Source: Escherichia phage Bp7. From it: DNA of 64,000 nt. The DNA lies in sequence record NC_019500.1; one strand, written 5' to 3'. The notes beneath the pieces were generated by a model. It made no database searches and was not told where the DNA came from. It worked only from the letters and a program-made list of their open reading frames with translations. The translations under genes were made by a program, and so were the position numbers. Positions 4,864 to 59,062 of the stretch are shown piece after piece. Every line of letters starts with the position of its first letter. Positions within the stretch are counted from its first letter, which is position 1.

Positions 4864-5226
4864 ATGATTGAAATTACTCTGAAACAACCTGAAGACTTCT
4901 TGAAAGTGAAAGAGACCCTAACTCGTATGGGTATCGCTAATAATAAAGAAAAGAAACTATATCAATCCTGCCACATTCTGCAAAAGCAAGGGCTGTATTA
5001 TATAGTCCACTTTAAAGAGATGTTACGTATGGATGGTCGCCAAGTTGATATCGATGGTGAAGACTATCAACGTCGAGATTCAATTGCCCAGCTTCTTAAG
5101 GAGTGGGGACTGATTGATATTGTAGATGAATCTGAACTGTTCGAAATCACCAATAACTTCCGTGTCATTTCCTTTAAGCAGAAAAATGACTGGGAACTAC
5201 TGTCTAAGTACACCATTGGTAATTAA
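4864..5226 (+). CDS. regA: RegA translational repressor
   Basis: 120 aa; MIEITLKQPEDFLKVKETLTRMGIANNK is near-identical to T4 RegA. Confidence 0.9.
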   Translation: MIEITLKQPEDFLKVKETLTRMGIANNKEKKLYQSCHILQKQGLYYIVHFKEMLRMDGRQVDIDGEDYQRRDSIAQLLKEWGLIDIVDESELFEITNNFRVISFKQKNDWELLSKYTIGN

Positions 5227-18564: not shown

Positions 18565-19593
18565 ATGTCATATGTCGATAAAGAATTTGCTGTACGTGCC
18601 TTGAATTACCAACCTAAATTCAGACAAGTAACTGGTAGTGATTTTAAATTAAACTGTCGTTGTCGTGTATGCGGTGACTCTCAAAAAGATGAGAACAAAG
18701 CTCGTTTTTGGGCCTATCCGGCTAATGACGGCTCTGTAATGCTGCACTGTTTTAACTGTGACTATTCAGCAGGAATTAAGAAGTATCTATACGAATACGA
18801 GCCTGATTTATATCGCGAATATATTCTTGAGAAACATAAAGAGCAATCGTTCGGGAGACAAGCTGCACCTAAGGTGGAGATATCTGAAAAAATTAAAGCT
18901 AAGATGCCTGTCATCGAAAAGCTTAATTTCTGTGAACGATTAGATAGGATGCCGAAGGACCATCCTATTATCAAATATGTGACGTTACGTTGCATTCCTG
19001 AAAACAAATGGAACCGGCTGTGGTTTACTAAAGAATGGCCTGCATTAGTTAACTCTGTGAATCCAGGGACCTATTCTAAAGAAATGCCTGAGCCTCGTTT
19101 GGTTATTCCAATTTTCAATAAGAATAAACAAATTGAAAGTTTTCAGGGTCGAGCCTTACGTAAAGATGCTCCACAAAAATATATTACAATAAAAGCTCAC
19201 GACCAAGCTACAAAAATATATGGAATGGATACAGTTGACGAACGTCAGTTGGTGTGGGTAATGGAAGGCCCTATTGACTCTTTGTTTGTTCCGAATGCAA
19301 TAGCAATTACTGGCGGGTCGTTGGACTTGGCTATGGTTCCGTGCAAAGAAACTAGGGTTTGGGCCCTTGATAGCGAAAGCCGCCACCCAGATACTATTTC
19401 AAGAATGAAAAAGCTTATCGAGGCTGGTGAAAAAGTAGTGTTTTGGGATAAGGTCCCTTGGCCTTCTAAAGATATTAACGATATGATTAGAAAAGACGGG
19501 GCGTCGCCGGAAGCAATACTAGAATATATGAAAAGTAATTACAGTCAAGGATTAATGGCTAAATTGAGATTACAACGGTATGCTAAAATATGA
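18565..19593 (+). CDS. 61: gp61 DNA primase
   Basis: 342 aa; zinc ribbon CRCRVCGD...CFNC; FQGRALRKDAPQKYITI resembles T4 gp61. Confidence 0.9.
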   Translation: MSYVDKEFAVRALNYQPKFRQVTGSDFKLNCRCRVCGDSQKDENKARFWAYPANDGSVMLHCFNCDYSAGIKKYLYEYEPDLYREYILEKHKEQSFGRQAAPKVEISEKIKAKMPVIEKLNFCERLDRMPKDHPIIKYVTLRCIPENKWNRLWFTKEWPALVNSVNPGTYSKEMPEPRLVIPIFNKNKQIESFQGRALRKDAPQKYITIKAHDQATKIYGMDTVDERQLVWVMEGPIDSLFVPNAIAITGGSLDLAMVPCKETRVWALDSESRHPDTISRMKKLIEAGEKVVFWDKVPWPSKDINDMIRKDGASPEAILEYMKSNYSQGLMAKLRLQRYAKI

Positions 19594-20345
19594 ATTATAA
19601 TAAAATTTATGACGATTTGGTTAATAGGGCCCTTGAAAGGGGTCTTATTAAAGAAAATTTAAAATACTATACAGAATCTCATCATATTATACCTGAATGT
19701 ATAGGTGGGCCTGATATAGATTCAAACAAAGTATTATTTACGGCAAGAGAGCATTTTATAGCTCACATATTATTGTATAAGATTTATAAGTTGCCTAAAT
19801 TAATATATGCTGTGCATATGATGTGCAATTCTAGTGAAAAGCACCAAAGAAATTCTAAGATGTATGACTGGCTTAGAAAGGACCATAAAGCAGCCTTAAG
19901 TAAGAAAATGACCGATGCTTGGAAAGCCCCTGAATTTAGGACCAAAATGGTGGCGGCCTTATACCAAAGGCACAAAGATAAGCCCGTCACAGAGGAGACT
20001 AGGGAAAAACAGTCTAATTCTCTAAAGAGGTATTATAAAGAAAATCCTATCTCTGAAGAAGCAAAAAAGAAAAATTCAGAAGCCCAAAAACAAAGGTTTA
20101 AAGATAGGCCTCAAACAGAAGAAACAAAAAGATTAAGGAAGGACTCATGCAGAAAAACCCAAGGCACCCCTATATGGTTATGTAATTCGAATGGGGTAGG
20201 AATAGAAAAGTTTTCTTCTGCGGCAGAAGCTAAAGAAATCTTAGGATTGTCCGGGCACACCCAAAATATATACACCGCTTGTAAGCGAAACAAAGAAACC
20301 GGGAGATTGTATAAATCCTCCGGTTTAATTTGGAAATATCAATAA
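19590..20345 (+). CDS. HNH homing endonuclease (Mob-like), paralogous to the 592-1308 gene
   Basis: HHIIPECIGGPD; N-terminus MNYNKIYDDLVNRALERG parallels MNYKSIYEKLIQRAVNR; AT-rich with AGA/AGG/ATA codons; start overlaps the gp61 stop (ATGA). Confidence 0.7.
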   Translation: MNYNKIYDDLVNRALERGLIKENLKYYTESHHIIPECIGGPDIDSNKVLFTAREHFIAHILLYKIYKLPKLIYAVHMMCNSSEKHQRNSKMYDWLRKDHKAALSKKMTDAWKAPEFRTKMVAALYQRHKDKPVTEETREKQSNSLKRYYKENPISEEAKKKNSEAQKQRFKDRPQTEETKRLRKDSCRKTQGTPIWLCNSNGVGIEKFSSAAEAKEILGLSGHTQNIYTACKRNKETGRLYKSSGLIWKYQ

Positions 20346-20584: not shown

Positions 20585-20608
20585 TGCTTTACAAATTAAT
20601 GATATAAT
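20585..20608 (+). promoter_or_regulatory. MotA-dependent middle promoter
   Basis: TGCTTTA at 20585-20591, 11-bp spacer, TATAAT at 20603-20608; upstream of gene 56. Confidence 0.45.
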
Positions 20609-20651: not shown

Positions 20652-21167
20652 ATGGCTCATTTTAACGAATGTAGTGGTTTGATTGCAGGTGTTGATAAAG
20701 CTGAGGAAGCTTATGTTAGTGCAATTACCAAAGGTATCGACCCACTGCAGGTTATGCTTGATATGCAGAAATCTTTACAGGTTCGTCTGGCTAATGACCG
20801 TGATTATTGTTACCACCCGGATAAACTGGCTACTGCAGGTGATGTTGTTGGATGGATGCGCGAACAGAAAGACTGCATCGATGATGAATTCCGTGAACTT
20901 CTGACTTCACTTGGTGAAATGTCTAAAGGTGAGAAAGATGCTTCTGCCGTCTGGAAAAAATGGAAGGCACGTTACCCAGAAGCTCAGTCTAAACGTATTG
21001 ATGAAATGAGCCCTGAAGACCAGTTGGAAATTAAATTTGAACTTGTGGACATAATCCATTTCGTATTAAACATGGTTACAGGTCTTGGTATGACTTCTGA
21101 AGAATTGTTCAAACTTTATTATCTGAAAAATCTTGAAAATTTCAAACGTCAGGACAATGGGTATTAA
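20652..21167 (+). CDS. 56: gp56 dCTPase (dCTP/dCDP pyrophosphatase)
   Basis: 171 aa; MAHFNECSG...VMLDMQKSLQVRLAND...CIDDEFRELLTSLGEMS resembles T4 gp56. Confidence 0.6.
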   Translation: MAHFNECSGLIAGVDKAEEAYVSAITKGIDPLQVMLDMQKSLQVRLANDRDYCYHPDKLATAGDVVGWMREQKDCIDDEFRELLTSLGEMSKGEKDASAVWKKWKARYPEAQSKRIDEMSPEDQLEIKFELVDIIHFVLNMVTGLGMTSEELFKLYYLKNLENFKRQDNGY

Positions 21168-24521: not shown

Positions 24522-25270
24522 ATGCCTACTATTAAAACTAACGATGAATTTGAGTTAAAGGTTTACAAACGTCGCGAACACACTAAAGCCTCTGCCAAAA
24601 AACGTGGTAAGGACTTTAACCTGTCTAGTAAGTACGTTCGTAGACTTCTTGAACAAAAAGTGTGTGCATATTCAGGCGAGCGCTTTGATGAGAATTCAGA
24701 TAAAGATAAGATTTCGTTTGAACGCTTTAACAACGATATAGGTTATATCGAAGGTAATGTAATCCCGGTTAAAGTTAAGTACAACGGGTTGCGAGCTGAT
24801 TTGTCTTTAGATGAATTGAAACGTGCACAGACTCGTTTAGCGTCCCGTATTTCAGGTGGTTCTAAAATGCCTAATAGTTTTAAAGTTACCCCAGATAATT
24901 ATTATAAAATTCGTAAAATAGTTAAAAATATTAAAGATACCCAAAGAGGTCTTAAAAAGCGTGAAAAACGTCTTAAGGACCTTATTAAATCAGGAGCCAC
25001 TGATAATACCCCTTCTGTCATCGCGGTTAAGGCCCGTATCCATGGTTCTAACGCTTCAATAGGTACTATGGAAAAGGGTCTCAAATCTATATTGGTGGGC
25101 CTGATTGGCGTGTCAAGTTTAAATTGTCTGAAGCAGAAACGCGTTACTATATGTATGATAAAATTATTCAAGGTCTGGAGCGTTTAGAACACCTTTCTTT
25201 TATTGACAAAATGAAGTTGAAAAAAGGTCTTCCGCTGAATGCTTCAATTTTTTCACTGATTAGAGGTTAA
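24522..25270 (+). CDS. hypothetical protein (srd position) with an apparent single-base frameshift near 25074-25079
   Basis: Frame-0 ORF 24522..25187 and an ATG-less frame-2 ORF 25052..25270 overlap; they join if one base is added in gaaaaggg. Confidence 0.3.
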
Positions 25271-27877: not shown

Positions 27878-28351
27878 ATGAAAATTTATCGAGTGGAGTC
27901 ATCGTTTAGTATCTTAGACAACAGCGATGTTATCACAATCACTCGTCATCAATGTCGCCAATTAACCCCGTATAGAGGCTCATTTGACGAATGGAGTGAA
28001 GGTTGGTTATTGGAAGTAGGTTTCGACAGACCTAATTTTAGACACCATCATACCAATAATAAAAATATTCCATTACCAAGTCAAGACGAATTGTTGGTTA
28101 AAAATTCTAATATGGTAATTAAAACCAAATTCGAACATGAAGATTATAAAGGTGTAGATAACTACATTCCAGGTTGGTTTGTCAATCTCTACCATTTTGC
28201 TTTTGCCAGCGAGTATGATATGATGCGCTGGTTCACTCGTGAAGAGCGTGCTGAATTATCTTCTAAAGGATTTTACCTTGCTGTTACGAAATACCTGAAG
28301 ATGAGTTGTCATTGGTGGCCGCCAAGTAAGGTTCCGCAAATCCCATGCTGA
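27878..28351 (+). CDS. hypothetical protein
   Basis: 157-aa ORF. Confidence 0.35.
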   Translation: MKIYRVESSFSILDNSDVITITRHQCRQLTPYRGSFDEWSEGWLLEVGFDRPNFRHHHTNNKNIPLPSQDELLVKNSNMVIKTKFEHEDYKGVDNYIPGWFVNLYHFAFASEYDMMRWFTREERAELSSKGFYLAVTKYLKMSCHWWPPSKVPQIPC

Positions 28352-28493
28352 ACTCGTAGATTTATGAATGAGAACAATATGAAATTTAATTACAACCCTA
28401 AATACACCCCGAATCCAGCAGCTAAACTGATTGATTTGATGTTTTAAGCACTTATGTATGCCTGTTAAACCACTGGAAATTAAGGAACCTGCT

Positions 28494-28928
28494 ATGAATA
28501 CTCAGACTATCGAAATCGGCAAAACCTACAAACTGGTTGAACGTGAAATTAAAACTAAGGCCTTGATTTCTGGCCATAAAACTCTGACTGAGGTTTTTGG
28601 CGAAGGCGAATTTATTGTTGAAGAATTTACCAAAAGTGACTGGTTTACTAAATCTTACGTCATCCACGGCCGTCGATTAGATAATAACAAAATAGAGAAA
28701 ATCTTGGTTTATGAAGCAGAGTTCATCCTGTTCCAAGAAGTTGAAGTCGAACAAGACCCTACTGACCTGCTGTGTGCTGCTGTGTCTATCCGTCGTCCTT
28801 TTGATAATCCTATCTGTGGATGGGTAACAGACCAATGGGTTGAAGATGGGGTTGAGCTGCTGAACGTTGTACATGCTGGTGATTTTAGTGTAGTACCTCG
28901 TAGTGCAGTGGTTAATGTATTGAATTAA
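28494..28928 (+). CDS. hypothetical protein, paralogue A (shared C-terminal WVEDGVELLNVVHAGDFSVVP module)
   Basis: C-terminus matches that of the 29002 ORF. Confidence 0.35.
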   Translation: MNTQTIEIGKTYKLVEREIKTKALISGHKTLTEVFGEGEFIVEEFTKSDWFTKSYVIHGRRLDNNKIEKILVYEAEFILFQEVEVEQDPTDLLCAAVSIRRPFDNPICGWVTDQWVEDGVELLNVVHAGDFSVVPRSAVVNVLN

Positions 28929-38481: not shown

Positions 38482-38661
38482 ATGAAACTTTTTAAAGATG
38501 TGGTAGTCGGCGAGAGCTTTGTATTGCATAATGGCCAACAACTGATTCGCATTTCTCCTTTGCAAGTTGGGACCGAATTACAACCTGTTAATGCTACAGA
38601 CCTTTATGATTCAACTAAGCGGTTTTTGTGTAGGGCCAAGTGTACAGTGCCTTACTGTTGA
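38482..38661 (+). CDS. hypothetical protein
   Basis: 59-aa ORF. Confidence 0.3.
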   Translation: MKLFKDVVVGESFVLHNGQQLIRISPLQVGTELQPVNATDLYDSTKRFLCRAKCTVPYC

Positions 38662-38704
38662 TGAACTGATGGAATTTCTGTTGACGCTGAATAAGGAAAA
38701 TATT

Positions 38705-39962: not shown

Positions 39963-41291
39963 ATGGAATTAACATCTCGTGGTTTAAAAAGTATTATCGA
40001 CAACGAAGCATTGGCTTATGCAATGTATACTGTCGAAAACCGAGCCATTCCGAATATGATTGATGGCTTTAAACCTGTACAACGGTTTGTAGTTGCTCGT
40101 TGTCTTGATATGGCTCGTGGTAATAAAGAAAAATTCCACAAACTAGCTTCTATTGCTGGCGGCGTAGCCGACCTTGGATATCACCACGGTGAAGGTTCTG
40201 CTCAGGAAGCAGGGGCTTTGATGGCTAACACATGGAACAACAACTATCCATTGTTAGACGGTCAAGGTAACTTTGGTTCCCGATTGGTTCAAAAAGCTGC
40301 AGCCTCTCGTTATATCTTTGCACGTATTGGAAGTAACTTTGCAAAAGTTTATAAGGACACAGAATATGCTCCGGTTCATGCGGATGTCGAACATAAGCCA
40401 CCGGCTTTTTATCTGCCTATTATTCCTACTGTTCTTCTTAATGGCGTTTCCGGTATTGCAACTGGCTATGCAACTAATATTCTTCCTCATAGTTTTGATT
40501 CTGTTAAGAAAGCTGTATTGCAAGTTCTTCAGGAAAAACGAGTAACCAAACCCAAAGTGGCTTATCCTGAATTCCGTGGTGAAGTTGTTGAGATTGAACC
40601 TGGTAGTTATGAGATTCGTGGAACGTATAAGTTCACATCCCGAACCCAAATGCATATCACGGAAATCCCATACAAATACGACCGTGAAACATATGTGGCT
40701 AAGGTATTAGACCCTCTGGAAGACAAAGGGTATATCACATATGATGATGACTGTGACGAGAACGGTTTTGGCTTCAAGGTTAAGATTCGTAAAGAATACG
40801 AATTGCCTACTGATGAAAACAAGAAGCATGAAAAAATCATGAAGGACTTCGGGTTAATCGAACGTCGTTCACAAAACCTGACTGTCATTAATGAAAAAGG
40901 TAAACTTAAGGTTTACGAAGATGCAGTTGAACTGATTCGTGATTTCGTTGAGGTCCGTAAGACCTTTGTACAGAAACGTATTGATGGTAAAATCATCGAA
41001 ACTGAAGAAGCTTTCAAACTGGCATTGGCTAAAGCCACATTTATCAAAGATGTTATTGATGGTGTAGTGGTTATCCAAGGTAAGACCCGTAAGGTTTTAA
41101 CCGAAGAATTGACCGGTAATAAAGTCTATGGCGAATATGCCGATAAACTAGTGGCCATGAACATTTTCCATATCACTTCTGACGAAGCCAAGAAACTGGC
41201 CCTCGAAGCCAAGGCTAAGAAAGAAGAGCATCAATATTGGAAAACCACTGATGTTGTAACTGAGTATGTTAAAGATTTGGAGGCTCTATGA
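39963..41291 (+). CDS. 52: gp52 DNA topoisomerase II medium subunit (GyrA-like)
   Basis: 442 aa; SIIDNEALAYAMYTVENRAIPNMIDGFKPVQRF is near-identical to T4 gp52. Confidence 0.9.
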   Translation: MELTSRGLKSIIDNEALAYAMYTVENRAIPNMIDGFKPVQRFVVARCLDMARGNKEKFHKLASIAGGVADLGYHHGEGSAQEAGALMANTWNNNYPLLDGQGNFGSRLVQKAAASRYIFARIGSNFAKVYKDTEYAPVHADVEHKPPAFYLPIIPTVLLNGVSGIATGYATNILPHSFDSVKKAVLQVLQEKRVTKPKVAYPEFRGEVVEIEPGSYEIRGTYKFTSRTQMHITEIPYKYDRETYVAKVLDPLEDKGYITYDDDCDENGFGFKVKIRKEYELPTDENKKHEKIMKDFGLIERRSQNLTVINEKGKLKVYEDAVELIRDFVEVRKTFVQKRIDGKIIETEEAFKLALAKATFIKDVIDGVVVIQGKTRKVLTEELTGNKVYGEYADKLVAMNIFHITSDEAKKLALEAKAKKEEHQYWKTTDVVTEYVKDLEAL

Positions 41292-41391
41292 GCCTTGGAG
41301 TCGAGTTCTTGTTACTCTGTATCTTTGCTGTTATCCTAGGCCTGGCGACAGGCTTAGCTATAGGTTTAATAGCAGCCAACTTTAAAAAGTA

Positions 41392-41417
41392 AGGAACCTT
41401 CGGGTTCCTTTTTTGGG
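41392..41417 (+). terminator. intrinsic terminator with UUCG tetraloop
   Basis: aggaaccTTCGggttcc followed by ttttttgggttt. Confidence 0.6.
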
Positions 41418-41432
41418 TTTAGTGCAAAAAGA

Positions 41433-41461
41433 GTTTACATCTGCTTTAAACATGATACTAT
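41433..41461 (+). promoter_or_regulatory. early promoter cassette
   Basis: gtttac, 17 bp, tgaTACTAT, tagacctatca. Confidence 0.45.
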
Positions 41462-41499
41462 AGACCTATCAAAACAACAGAGTGAAATGGAGATACAAA

Positions 41500-41715
41500 A
41501 TGAACAAGATGAAAAATACCCAAAACGCTACCGTCCGTTTCGGTAAAGTTAAACCTGGCATGAATGCTAAACGTAAAGAACTAGTTGAAAAACTAAATTG
41601 GTTGGAAGTAGAGATAAATTCCTTAGTAGTTCGCGGCTCTAATGGTCGTGAACTGGAAAAACTCCGTGAAGGAAAAGCTGCTTTAATCGCCGAGATTAAA
41701 GACCTATCAATCTAA
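41500..41715 (+). CDS. hypothetical basic protein
   Basis: 71-aa ORF. Confidence 0.35.
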   Translation: MNKMKNTQNATVRFGKVKPGMNAKRKELVEKLNWLEVEINSLVVRGSNGRELEKLREGKAALIAEIKDLSI

Positions 41716-41726
41716 GTAATTTTTAC

Positions 41727-41747
41727 CAGAGCTCTTGAAAAAGAGCT
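41727..41747 (+). other. GNRA-loop hairpin (8-bp stem) between two cassettes
   Basis: gagctctt GAAA aagagctc. Confidence 0.3.
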
Positions 41748-41755
41748 CAAAATAA

Positions 41756-41784
41756 AGTTTACTTCTGCTTTAAACATGATACTA
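41756..41784 (+). promoter_or_regulatory. early promoter cassette
   Basis: gtttac, 17 bp, tgaTACTAT, tagacctatca. Confidence 0.45.
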
Positions 41785-41820
41785 TAGACCTATCAAATAA
41801 ATGGTTATCGGAGATACAAA

Positions 41821-42455
41821 ATGTCTAAAATTACTTATATCATCAAAGCTTCTGAAGACGCCCTGAATGAAAAAACGGCTTCGATCTTAGTACATATCAT
41901 CAAGCATAACTTCATCACTTCAGGCGAAGTCCGTGAAGCCCTGAGTGAGCAATTTAGTGCTGCGGTAGTTAACTCTAATATCGGTGTATTAATTAAGAAA
42001 GGATTCATCGAAAATCTGGTGACGGACTAGTGGCTACAGGTGAAGCAATGGACCTAGTTCAAAAAGCTGCTGACTTGTTCGCTTCTGAAAATGCTCCAGA
42101 GATGTTGGAAAAACGTAAAACGCGTAGTTCACGTGGTGTTACTCCTGAAATGGTAACACTGGCTGATGAAGTTAAAGCTTTATTAGAAGACCGTATCGAG
42201 ATTCGTGAAATTGCTGAAAACCGTAGCAACCTTGAAGTTCGATTCGCTAAACGTACCAACGGTATTCGTCAAATCGAAGTCCGTCGTGATGGAATGATGC
42301 GTATCTTCGGTTATAATATGACTGATAAAGAAAAACAAGTGTTTACTTCCTTGAATCTTGATGTTAAGATTAAGACTGGTGGTAAGAATACTTATATCGA
42401 CTTCCAAAACGTATCATCTGAAGTTATCAAAACCGTAACCAACGCAATTATCTGA
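41821..42455 (+). CDS. motA: MotA middle-transcription activator, split by a -1 frameshift in an A4 run at 42011-42014
   Basis: N-terminal part MSKITYIIKASEDALNEKTASILVHI...GVLIKKGFIE, then KSGDGLVATGEAMDLV... in the -1 frame; C-terminal part RIFGYNMTD; T4 MotA is 211 aa. Confidence 0.6.
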
Positions 42456-42469
42456 CTGAGGAAATTATT

Positions 42470-42799
42470 ATGAACAAGCTGAATATTGTTAATGAACTTC
42501 GTCGTTGTGCAGAACCTACTCAAGAAGGTTGGGACATTTGGTACCATGGCGCTTATCTTGGAACTATTGTCAAGGTTAAAGCAGGTAAATACTTAATCAT
42601 CCGTGGTGGTTCTGAAGCTTCTATGGGAATTCGCAAAAACTTTATGGCGGCAATCAGCACCTTTGTCCCAGCGGCTTATGAAGTCTATAAAGCGGACTAC
42701 AAAGAATACCAAGAATCACAACCGGTTATCCGTTCAATTGGTGTTAATAAAGCTCAACAGAAATCTTTATGGCAGCGTATTAAAGGATGGTTCAAATGA
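42470..42799 (+). CDS. hypothetical protein
   Basis: 109-aa ORF. Confidence 0.35.
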   Translation: MNKLNIVNELRRCAEPTQEGWDIWYHGAYLGTIVKVKAGKYLIIRGGSEASMGIRKNFMAAISTFVPAAYEVYKADYKEYQESQPVIRSIGVNKAQQKSLWQRIKGWFK

Positions 42800-43134
42800 T
42801 TCCGATGGAACTTAACTGGGACGGTGAAGGTCATTCCCTTAAATTGATTGAAGAACAACGTAATGATTGGGACGAGCGTGTAGCTTTGGTAAGCGGTATT
42901 AAGAAAATTTACCAACTCGATCTCCAGATTGATAACGTTTATCTTGAATTTGGTATGCAGTTATTACGATTTCTTGAGATTATTTTTATTGAAAAGGTAA
43001 ATATAACTTCGTATGGCGAGGGCCAAACAGTTAATATTAAATTATCATCCTATTATAAAGGTGATTTAATTGAAACTGCCACCAAAATTCAAGAATTTGC
43101 TAAAGATAACGGCCATAAGGTGATTTTCAAATGA
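42796..43134 (+). CDS. hypothetical protein
   Basis: ORF with ATGA overlap to the upstream gene. Confidence 0.3.
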
Positions 43135-44203: not shown

Positions 44204-44479
44204 ATGACTAAAATTGAAATTGTTTCCGAAATTGCTACTATTGTTTCCATTTTGATTAAAACGGATTGTGAAGACATCATGCAACGTCGTGATGAGTTTA
44301 TTGCCTTTTTGAATGAGTTAGGTATTCGTAATGAACATGGAAAGGAACTTAATGGTTTGTCTTATAACAAATTATTTAAGTCATTAACTGAAGATGAACG
44401 TGATACTCTTATTGAGCAATTTAATGAAGGGTATGAAGATATACACCGCTATCTAATGATGTATACCTCCAATTTTTAA
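44204..44479 (+). CDS. asiA: AsiA anti-sigma70 factor
   Basis: 91 aa; EFIAFLNELGI...LIEQFNEGYEDIHRYLMMYT resembles T4 AsiA. Confidence 0.7.
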   Translation: MTKIEIVSEIATIVSILIKTDCEDIMQRRDEFIAFLNELGIRNEHGKELNGLSYNKLFKSLTEDERDTLIEQFNEGYEDIHRYLMMYTSNF

Positions 44480-55259: not shown

Positions 55260-56207
55260 ATGAACGATTTAGATTTTTTACTTCCTGAAGAAGACCAACA
55301 AAAAGATGGATTTTTACTCCTAGATTTCAGCCAAATCATTATGGCGGCGGCTTTCCAAGAGTTTGGTGAGAATGCTGGATTTCCTAAAGTAACTACCGCA
55401 ATGCTTCGACACCTCGTGTTGAATTCAATTAAGAAAAACATTAAAGACTTCCGTAAACAAGGTTACAACCAATTAATTATTTGTGTTGATAACTCCAAAT
55501 CAGGTTATTGGCGTCGTCGTTATTCTTCTTATTATAAGAAAAACCGTGCTAAGGCTCGTGACGAATCACCATTTGATTGGGAAGGTTTATTCACAGCAAT
55601 GCATATTATTGTTGATGAACTGGAACAAAACATGCCTTATATTGTTATGAATATCGATACAATCGAAGCTGACGACCATATTGCTGTTTTAACCCGAATC
55701 CTTACGGCTTTAGGCCACCCTGTTATGATTGGTTCTTCTGATGGTGACTTTACCCAACTTCATAAATTCCCTGGTGTAAAACAATGGTCCCCAATGCAGA
55801 AAAAATTCGTCAAAACAAAATCTGGTGATGCATTGCTTGATTGCGTGACTAAGGTTGTTAAAGGTGACCGTAAAGATAACGTCGCGAGTATTAAAGTTCG
55901 TGGTGATTATTGGTTGACCATGGTTGAAGGCGAGCGTACTCCTAGCACTCGTGCCAAGGAACTTGAAGCAATTGCTCTTAATTATTATGACCATGATATA
56001 ATTAAAACACTTCTTACTGAAGAACAATATGAACGTTTCTGTGAAAACCAAATCTTAATTGATATGGACTTTATTCCGGATGATATTGTTGCTTTAATTA
56101 CTGAAAGATATAATACGTATAACAAACCTTCGAAATCTAAAGTTTATCCTTATTTCGTTAAATCGGGTTTGTCTAAACTAACCGCTACAGTAGCTGATTT
56201 TTATTAA
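55260..56207 (+). CDS. rnh: RNase H (FEN-1-like 5'-3' exonuclease)
   Basis: 315 aa; LLDFSQI..., CVDNSKSGYWRR, IGSSDGDFTQLHK resemble T4 RNase H. Confidence 0.85.
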   Translation: MNDLDFLLPEEDQQKDGFLLLDFSQIIMAAAFQEFGENAGFPKVTTAMLRHLVLNSIKKNIKDFRKQGYNQLIICVDNSKSGYWRRRYSSYYKKNRAKARDESPFDWEGLFTAMHIIVDELEQNMPYIVMNIDTIEADDHIAVLTRILTALGHPVMIGSSDGDFTQLHKFPGVKQWSPMQKKFVKTKSGDALLDCVTKVVKGDRKDNVASIKVRGDYWLTMVEGERTPSTRAKELEAIALNYYDHDIIKTLLTEEQYERFCENQILIDMDFIPDDIVALITERYNTYNKPSKSKVYPYFVKSGLSKLTATVADFY

Positions 56208-57420: not shown

Positions 57421-58052
57421 ATATAGTTTATAAAATGACTTGGCTTAATCGTCAGGCTAATAATATTAAGCCGTTTTCGTACATAGGTTCTAAAACTAAT
57501 TGTACTTTTGAAAATGGCGTGATTATTGACTGTAAAGGTAAAGAGTATTGGACCTCTTGCGAGCAATCAAGATTTAAAGAGGCCATCGAAGAAGAAAAAC
57601 CTATTGTTGAAATTTTGGCTATAACGCCATTTGATATTGTTATTAATATTGAACGTTCAGAACAATTGGAAGTTCAAGCTAGAGATAATGATGATTATTT
57701 TAATTTGGTTTATGCCGGTGGCGGATTTGGAGTCTTTGGATGCACTCACCCAGCCAAACGTCCTGAAGTTAGAGCCCATATGAAAGCTGCTAACTATATG
57801 AATCAACCCGATTACCGTCCTTGGAAAACTTCTAGAGCAAACCCTTTAGATTGGATGCTTAGTGATATTGCTTATACTAATTATTGTATAATTAATTCTA
57901 GTGGAAGAGCTTGTGGATGGAGGCGTCTCATTAACTCTGGTATAAATGTTAGTGAAACTACATCAAAGAGTATGATTAAACAATTTAATGAGGGTTGGGT
58001 TCCTAATGATGACCCTGAATTCATTAAGTTAAAAATGCTTTATTCGAAGTGA
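57417..58052 (+). CDS. possible GIY-YIG homing endonuclease, SegG-like by position (between 59 and 32)
   Basis: N-terminal IVYKMTWLNRQANNIKPFSYIGSKTN; TTG start overlapping the gp59 stop. Confidence 0.35.
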   Translation: MNIVYKMTWLNRQANNIKPFSYIGSKTNCTFENGVIIDCKGKEYWTSCEQSRFKEAIEEEKPIVEILAITPFDIVINIERSEQLEVQARDNDDYFNLVYAGGGFGVFGCTHPAKRPEVRAHMKAANYMNQPDYRPWKTSRANPLDWMLSDIAYTNYCIINSSGRACGWRRLINSGINVSETTSKSMIKQFNEGWVPNDDPEFIKLKMLYSK

Positions 58053-58060
58053 TATATAAT
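58036..58060 (+). promoter_or_regulatory. MotA-dependent middle promoter for gene 32
   Basis: TGCTTTA at 58036-58042, 12-bp spacer, TATAAT at 58055-58060. Confidence 0.4.
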
Positions 58061-58150: not shown

Positions 58151-59062
58151 ATGTCTATGTTTAAACGCCGTAATCCTGCTGAACTTGCTGCTCAACTGTC
58201 TGCAATGAAAGGTGGCTCTTCTTTCTCGTCTGATGACAAATCCGAATGGAAATTGAAAGATGACAATGGCGTAGGAACCGCAGTTATTCGATTCCTTCCT
58301 TCGAAAAACGAAGCTAATCCATCCCCATTCGTTAAGCTTGTTAACCATGGTTTTAAGAAAAATGGTCAGTGGTATATCGAATCATGTACGTCTACTCATG
58401 GTGATTTCGATTCATGTCCTGTATGTAAATACATGAACCAGAATGATACCTTTAATACTAATAATGCCGAATACAAACTGATGAAACGTAAAACTTCCTT
58501 CTGGGCTAACATCCTTGTTATTAAGGATAGTGCAGTGCCTGCTAACGAAGGTAAAGTGTTTAAATTCCGTTTCGGTCAGAAAATTATGGATAAAATCAAC
58601 CAGATGGTTGAAGTTGATACTGATATTGGTGAAGTGCCGGTTGACGTAACATGTCCGTTTGATGGTGCGAACTTCGTACTGAAATCTAAGAAAGTTGGCG
58701 ACTTCAAAAACTACGACGATTCCAAATTCATGGGTCAGTCTGAAATTCCTAACATCAATGATGAAGCTTACCAAGCTAAATTGATGGAAGAAATGCACGA
58801 CCTTTCTAAACTGCTCGATTTCAAATCATTCGAAACTAACGAAGCCAAGTTTAAGAAAGTTGTTGGTACAGCTGCTCTTGGTGGTGCTGCCGCTAAAGCT
58901 TCTGCTGCCGCTGATAAGATTGGTGATGACCTGGACGCATTCAGTGCAGACCTTGATGCATATGATTCCAAACCGTCTACACCTGCTCGTTCCACCACTC
59001 CTGAGCCGTCAGTAAGTCCTTCTGATGACGATGGTCTGGACGACCTGTTAGCTGGTCTATAA
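58151..59062 (+). CDS. 32: gp32 single-stranded DNA-binding protein
   Basis: 303 aa; [37 protein letters not shown], acidic C-terminal tail. Confidence 0.9.

Follow-up and report, generated by a model that had tools for sequence, protein, structure and literature searches.

The motA locus of Bp7

The window analyzed here, a 64,000-nt stretch of the Escherichia phage Bp7 genome (NC_019500.1), carries motA as two open reading frames on the plus strand. The first, at 41821-42030 and annotated in Bp7 as AEN93865.1, encodes 69 aa and stops at a TAG; its residues 1-64 are MotA sequence, and the final five (NLVTD) are an out-of-frame read-through to the stop codon. The second reading frame, which holds MotA residues 65-211, extends from 42012 to 42455 according to tblastn and Pfam and is annotated as AEN93866.1, the ORF as called being a 141-aa frame at 42030-42455 with a GTG start that overlaps the TAG by one base. 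Because (42030-41821) mod 3 is 2, the 141-aa ORF lies in the -1 frame relative to the 69-aa ORF. Both fragments are already named 'activator of middle period transcription' in the Bp7 record. The ORFs and the tblastn matches thus bear out a preliminary description of this DNA, according to which motA is divided into ORFs of 69 and 141 aa with a -1 shift from 42030; a single uninterrupted ORF of about 210 aa, present in every relative examined, is absent from the window.

The frames part at a run of four A residues (42011-42014, plus strand, context GAAAAT) from which one A is missing, since the alignments show A5 in all relatives. Translation of frame 3 from 41991 gives KSGDGLVATGEAMDLV, which continues the T4 MotA sequence VEKSGDGLIITGEAQDII. 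When MotA from LHE83 was searched against the window with tblastn, query residues 1-64 matched in frame 1 (98.4% identity) and residues 65-211 in frame 3 (100%), with the junction at 42012, a two-frame match that is far above chance. Addition of one A to the run at 42011-42014 yields an uninterrupted MotA, as had been proposed for a protein of roughly 210 aa; the restored product has 211 aa and is 100% identical to the MotA of WG01 (AND75932.1).

This restored protein contains a MotA_activ domain at residues 2-96 (Pfam, E = 2.3e-38; the pair PF09114 and PF09158 was tested) and the MotCF C-terminal double-wing DNA-binding domain at 125-206 (Pfam, E = 9.5e-14; 51.8 bits), and its C-terminal domain also aligns to 5JLT and 1KAF. 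In the deposited sequence, the 69-aa fragment covers positions 1-63 of the 95 in the MotA_activ profile, where the domain is cut, and the 3' frame carries the tail of MotA_activ together with MotCF.

These domain assignments bear on whether the A4 run could be real in a Bp7 that still grows well, with polypeptide 1-69 and a reinitiated 141-aa polypeptide reassembling non-covalently, or with low-level -1 frameshifting or transcriptional slippage at the A-run supplying some full-length MotA. Reinitiation is conceivable, in that the stop codon and the GTG overlap (TAGTG, 42028-42032) with a GGTGA located 7 nt 5' of the GTG, and the 141-aa product would keep a complete MotCF DNA-binding domain. 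However, the break at residue 64/65 falls inside the five-helix activation domain (Pfam, 2-96) and not in the inter-domain linker, and K3, K28 and Q76, which belong to the MotA cleft that binds H5 of sigma-70 (PMC2988021), would be parted between the two fragments, with the reinitiated product amounting to a DNA-binding domain without most of the activation domain. Moreover, no relative has a split arrangement, and nothing indicates selection for it. A functional split protein, which was among the three explanations first offered, is therefore disfavoured because the break lies within the activation domain; a split at a domain boundary was also considered and is rejected, the Pfam break being at position 63 of 95, in that same domain.

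Recoding fares no better. The site (C GAA AAT C) has neither a slippery heptamer of the form X XXY YYZ nor a homopolymer of at least 7 nt, and its four A residues are too short a run for efficient transcriptional slippage. No stimulatory downstream RNA structure was found in the 90 nt at 42016-42105 (minimum free energy -22.2 kcal/mol, z = -0.49 against shuffled sequences), and the frameshift arrangement is not conserved, as all relatives compared have a single ORF and A5. Programmed frameshifting and slippage are rejected on these four grounds. We consider a working split or recoded MotA very improbable; if it were true, it would mean that sigma appropriation tolerates a split activator.

The MotA system and the surroundings of motA

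The regulatory context of motA is intact. A T4-type early promoter region (GTTTAC-N17-TACTAT) lies 5' of the gene at 41750-41797 on the plus strand and repeats a 48-nt segment at 41426-41473, the first copy of this direct repeat, which is 94% identical and was scored as a promoter-like site. A Shine-Dalgarno GGAG follows at 41810-41813 on the same strand, within the sequence atcGGAGatacaaaATG; in T4, the GGAG of the motA mRNA is a RegB cleavage site (PMC2988021). The gene for AsiA, the co-activator partner of MotA, is located downstream at 44204-44479 (plus strand) and is intact, encoding a 91-aa protein that is 100% identical to LHE83 AsiA and matches Pfam PF09010 (window 44204-44476, E = 9.8e-22).

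The window is also enriched in MotA-box promoter sequences. A strict pattern, TGCTTTA-N11-12-TATAAT, has five matches against 0.03 expected, and a relaxed pattern has 13 against 3.3 expected. The plus strand, which is that of the early and middle genes, holds 11 of the 13 relaxed matches, and eight of these 11 sites are letter-for-letter the same in LHE83, in which motA is intact. Candidate middle promoters on this strand include those at 1553-1576, 5' of rpbA and gene 45 and exactly kept in LHE83, ABTNLS3 and PSD9; at 20585-20608, 5' of the dCTPase gene (the gene 56 homologue, which starts at 20652); at 56090-56114, within the end of rnh, 5' of dsbA and kept in LHE83; and at 58036-58060, 5' of gene 32 (start at 58151) and likewise kept in LHE83. 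The boxes at 1553, 20585 and 58036 are present exactly as the preliminary description gave them, and the MotA-box enrichment together with an intact AsiA supports its expectation of a functional MotA. Judging from the sequence, in which the promoter, Shine-Dalgarno sequence, AsiA and MotA boxes are all intact, Bp7 would indeed be expected to make a functional MotA.

Several further features of this neighbourhood are recorded as observations in their own right. The region between gene 52 and motA (41391-41797) contains a 77-aa ORF at 41482-41715 (plus strand) that is bracketed by the two 94%-identical 48-nt early-promoter segments, with a stem-loop before each. This ORF is present in JS98, ABTNLsp5 and C6 and absent from QL01 and LHE83. 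In T4-type genomes, it has been proposed that small ORFs are shuffled by cassettes consisting of a promoter and a stem-loop, which the arrangement at 41391-41797 appears to resemble. The preceding gene, which encodes gp52, the topoisomerase II medium subunit (39963-41291, plus strand), specifies 442 aa, as in JS98 and QL01, compared with 459 aa in LHE83, WG01 and ABTNLS3. A 48-nt stretch at the 5' end accounts for this; as it is in frame, it probably reflects genuine variation or the use of another start.

Comparison of the A-run with relatives

By BLAST, the window belongs to a Dhakavirus, a JS98-like relative of T4, and the closest phage records are 94-98% identical. All five Dhakavirus motA genes that were aligned have A5 and an ORF of 210 or 211 aa. 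JS98, ABTNLsp5, QL01 and C6 each read GAAAAAT in a single 633-nt motA ORF, and A5 is present as well in the motA genes of LHE83, ABTNLS3 and PSD9. It also occurs in three Logan contigs, which derive from independent public sequencing runs and all encode an arn.4 protein identical to that of the window. One of these contigs, L012 (SRR20950837), corresponds to 41927-42900 of the window and is identical to it at the 975 aligned nt, the extra A excepted.

In an exact-sequence look-up, the 69-aa and 141-aa fragments each occurred on one contig only, the Bp7 record itself, and the restored 211-aa protein was found on five contigs. The motA lesion is unique to the Bp7 record, and the sequence on either side has gathered no additional changes. 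A lineage-specific split common to the relatives of Bp7 is rejected, as no relative examined has the A4 arrangement.

Other frame-breaking lesions in the window

To survey frame-breaking differences, the whole window was aligned to LHE83 and all indels that are not a multiple of three were listed, and every LHE83 protein was searched against the window with tblastn. Beyond motA, at least 13 further one-base deletions were found in this 64-kb window that occur only in the Bp7 record. Five of 87 LHE83 proteins are split in the window (gp46, Srd, the products of two genes between dexA and motB, and MotA), compared with none of 76 and none of 74 in two other Dhakavirus genomes that served as controls. 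The frame-breaking differences are deletions in every case, nearly all of them shorten runs of two to five identical bases, and they are absent from the relatives checked.

The most heavily affected gene is that of gp46, an SbcC/Rad50-like recombination nuclease subunit whose 3' part occupies positions 1-590 of the window on the plus strand. Compared with MX01, five single bases are missing from its last 450 nt, at about positions 140, 187, 393, 427 and 431, where AAA has become AA, TT has become T, one lone T is lost, TTTTT has become TTTT, and GG has become G. The frame shifts repeatedly as a result, and stops arise. Gene 46 is essential in T4, and with five frameshifts in the deposited gene the lesions cannot be real in a plaque-forming phage. 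The Bp7 record is almost certainly of low quality across the gp46 3' region.

A second gene, srd (24522-25270, plus strand), is split by a one-base deletion at 25092, which changes TTTAATTGG to TATA-TTGG and is adjoined by two substitutions that are also unique. The missing base is present and the gene intact (244/249 aa) in all ten of the relatives retrieved through a neighbouring gene. The two genes between dexA and motB (27878-28928, plus strand), whose LHE83 counterparts encode 169 and 182 aa, have lost seven bases within 180 nt, at 28284, 28305, 28364 (two bases), 28369, 28435 and 28461, and both are broken as a result. All seven are homopolymer contractions (TTT to TT, GG to G, TTTT to TTT, TT to T twice, TTTT to TTT, and CCC to CC). 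Exact-protein look-up with the dexA and dda products of the window found no near-identical contigs; look-up with the smaller dda.1 product did succeed.

Two further places depart from the relatives. A one-base insertion at 38622 (plus strand), where G has become GG, is followed 52 nt on by a one-base deletion at 38674, both within a hypothetical gene of 70 aa. The two changes compensate for each other and are unique in comparison with three relatives; they may be a further pair of errors, or else a compensated frameshift that is real. At 4865 (plus strand), at the junction of gene 62 and regA, one A is missing, such that TAAATTAAAATGA in three relatives reads TAAATTAAATGA here. The loss breaks no frame because it is intergenic, and it is consistent with the same error process.

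The window also contains two homing-endonuclease-like ORFs that are 34-38% identical to an LHE83 homing endonuclease. One, at 601-1308 on the minus strand, lies between gene 46 and 45.2, as in MX01, and the other, at 19590-20126 on the plus strand, directly follows the gene for the primase; both positions lack an ORF in LHE83.

Origin of the motA frameshift

Deletions that run in one direction, fall nearly all in short homopolymers, are partly clustered and are confined to one record are the pattern that faulty base-calling or assembly gives rise to, and are unlike what a viable phage population carries. On this sequence evidence we judge the motA split to be a base-calling or assembly artefact of the deposited Bp7 sequence, with a probability of roughly 0.85. 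Under this explanation, one A of a genuine A5 run (GAAAAAT) would have been lost when the Bp7 genome was base-called or assembled. We infer that the physical phage DNA carries A5 and that living Bp7 most likely encodes an ordinary 211-aa MotA, which, as in T4, would carry out sigma appropriation jointly with AsiA and so direct the sigma-70 RNA polymerase of E. coli to middle promoters that have a MotA box. A homopolymer sequencing error had been listed earlier as one of three alternatives, and it is now strongly favoured by the uniqueness of the lesion, the identity of the restored protein with the MotA of a relative, the at least 13 similar deletions and the clean controls.

Counting against an artefact, the motA deletion stands alone in sequence that is otherwise perfect, the lesions in gp46 and at 28284-28461 being by contrast clustered and resembling low-quality patches; in addition, runs of five A are genuine hotspots of slippage during replication. 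A5 could have become A4 by such slippage in the sequenced Bp7 stock, leaving a phage that is motA-null or strongly hypomorphic. The flanks of motA match relatives at 100%, which would fit a real and very recent event. Phages with point or nonsense mutations in T4 motA survive, forming tiny plaques and showing delayed DNA synthesis, but these mutants are considered leaky, and T4 does not tolerate deletion of the gene, which is lethal (PMC2988021). A frameshift at codon 65 deprives the first product of its entire DNA-binding domain and of one third of the activation domain, and one would not expect an allele so strongly deleterious to prevail in a high-titre stock. Moreover, a real motA mutation would need to coincide with a record that drops bases elsewhere, and the approximately 13 other unique one-base deletions, five of them in gp46, cannot all be real in a viable phage. 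We therefore regard a genuine recent mutation as unlikely. Bp7 is a therapeutic phage that forms plaques, and a single laboratory has isolated and propagated it and put it to experimental use (PMC10987938); that it propagates, although deletion of motA is lethal in T4 and gene 46 is essential there, counts in favour of the artefact.

Implications and comparison with known systems

The main value of these observations is as a data-quality flag for the Bp7 reference record, which is also in RefSeq. Public annotation of Bp7 already shows motA in two pieces, and the evidence best supports the view that this split has no biological reality. In its present form the record lists two 'MotA' proteins, of 69 and 141 aa, along with shortened gp46, Srd and motB-dexA products, and these broken products have spread into UniRef and NCBI nr, where they stand as singletons or fragments. 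Wherever Bp7 serves comparative genomics, engineering or work that needs a reference for therapeutic phages, its frameshifts should be treated as probable errors. A real motA frameshift would have a bearing on how far phages other than T4 can dispense with MotA, but the evidence speaks against one.

The lesions of Bp7 resemble the homopolymer under-calling artefacts of older or low-coverage phage records, which likewise consist of single-base deletions in runs of two to five bases, are patchy, occur in a single record and disrupt conserved as well as essential genes, and from this pattern we infer that they belong to the same class. Compared with other members of Dhakavirus, the gene itself is much alike, with 91-98% DNA identity to the motA genes of WG01, LHE83, ABTNLS3, QL01 and JS98 in the aligned stretches around the site; the difference is that these have GAAAAAT (A5) and a single ORF of 210 or 211 aa, whereas the Bp7 window has A4 and two ORFs. 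The similarity extends to T4 MotA (PDB 6K4Y, 1I1S and 1KAF), to which the restored 211-aa product aligns from end to end (E = 3.4e-55 against 6K4Y), with a C-terminal domain that is fairly diverged from that of T4 MotA, as the 51.8 bits of its MotCF match indicate. As in T4, motA lies between gene 52 and arn.4, asiA is located downstream and MotA-box promoters are present; unlike T4 MotA, the ORF as written in the window is interrupted at codon 65 by the missing A. Apart from this interruption in the deposited ORF, Bp7 has an ordinary motA gene of the T4 MotA family.
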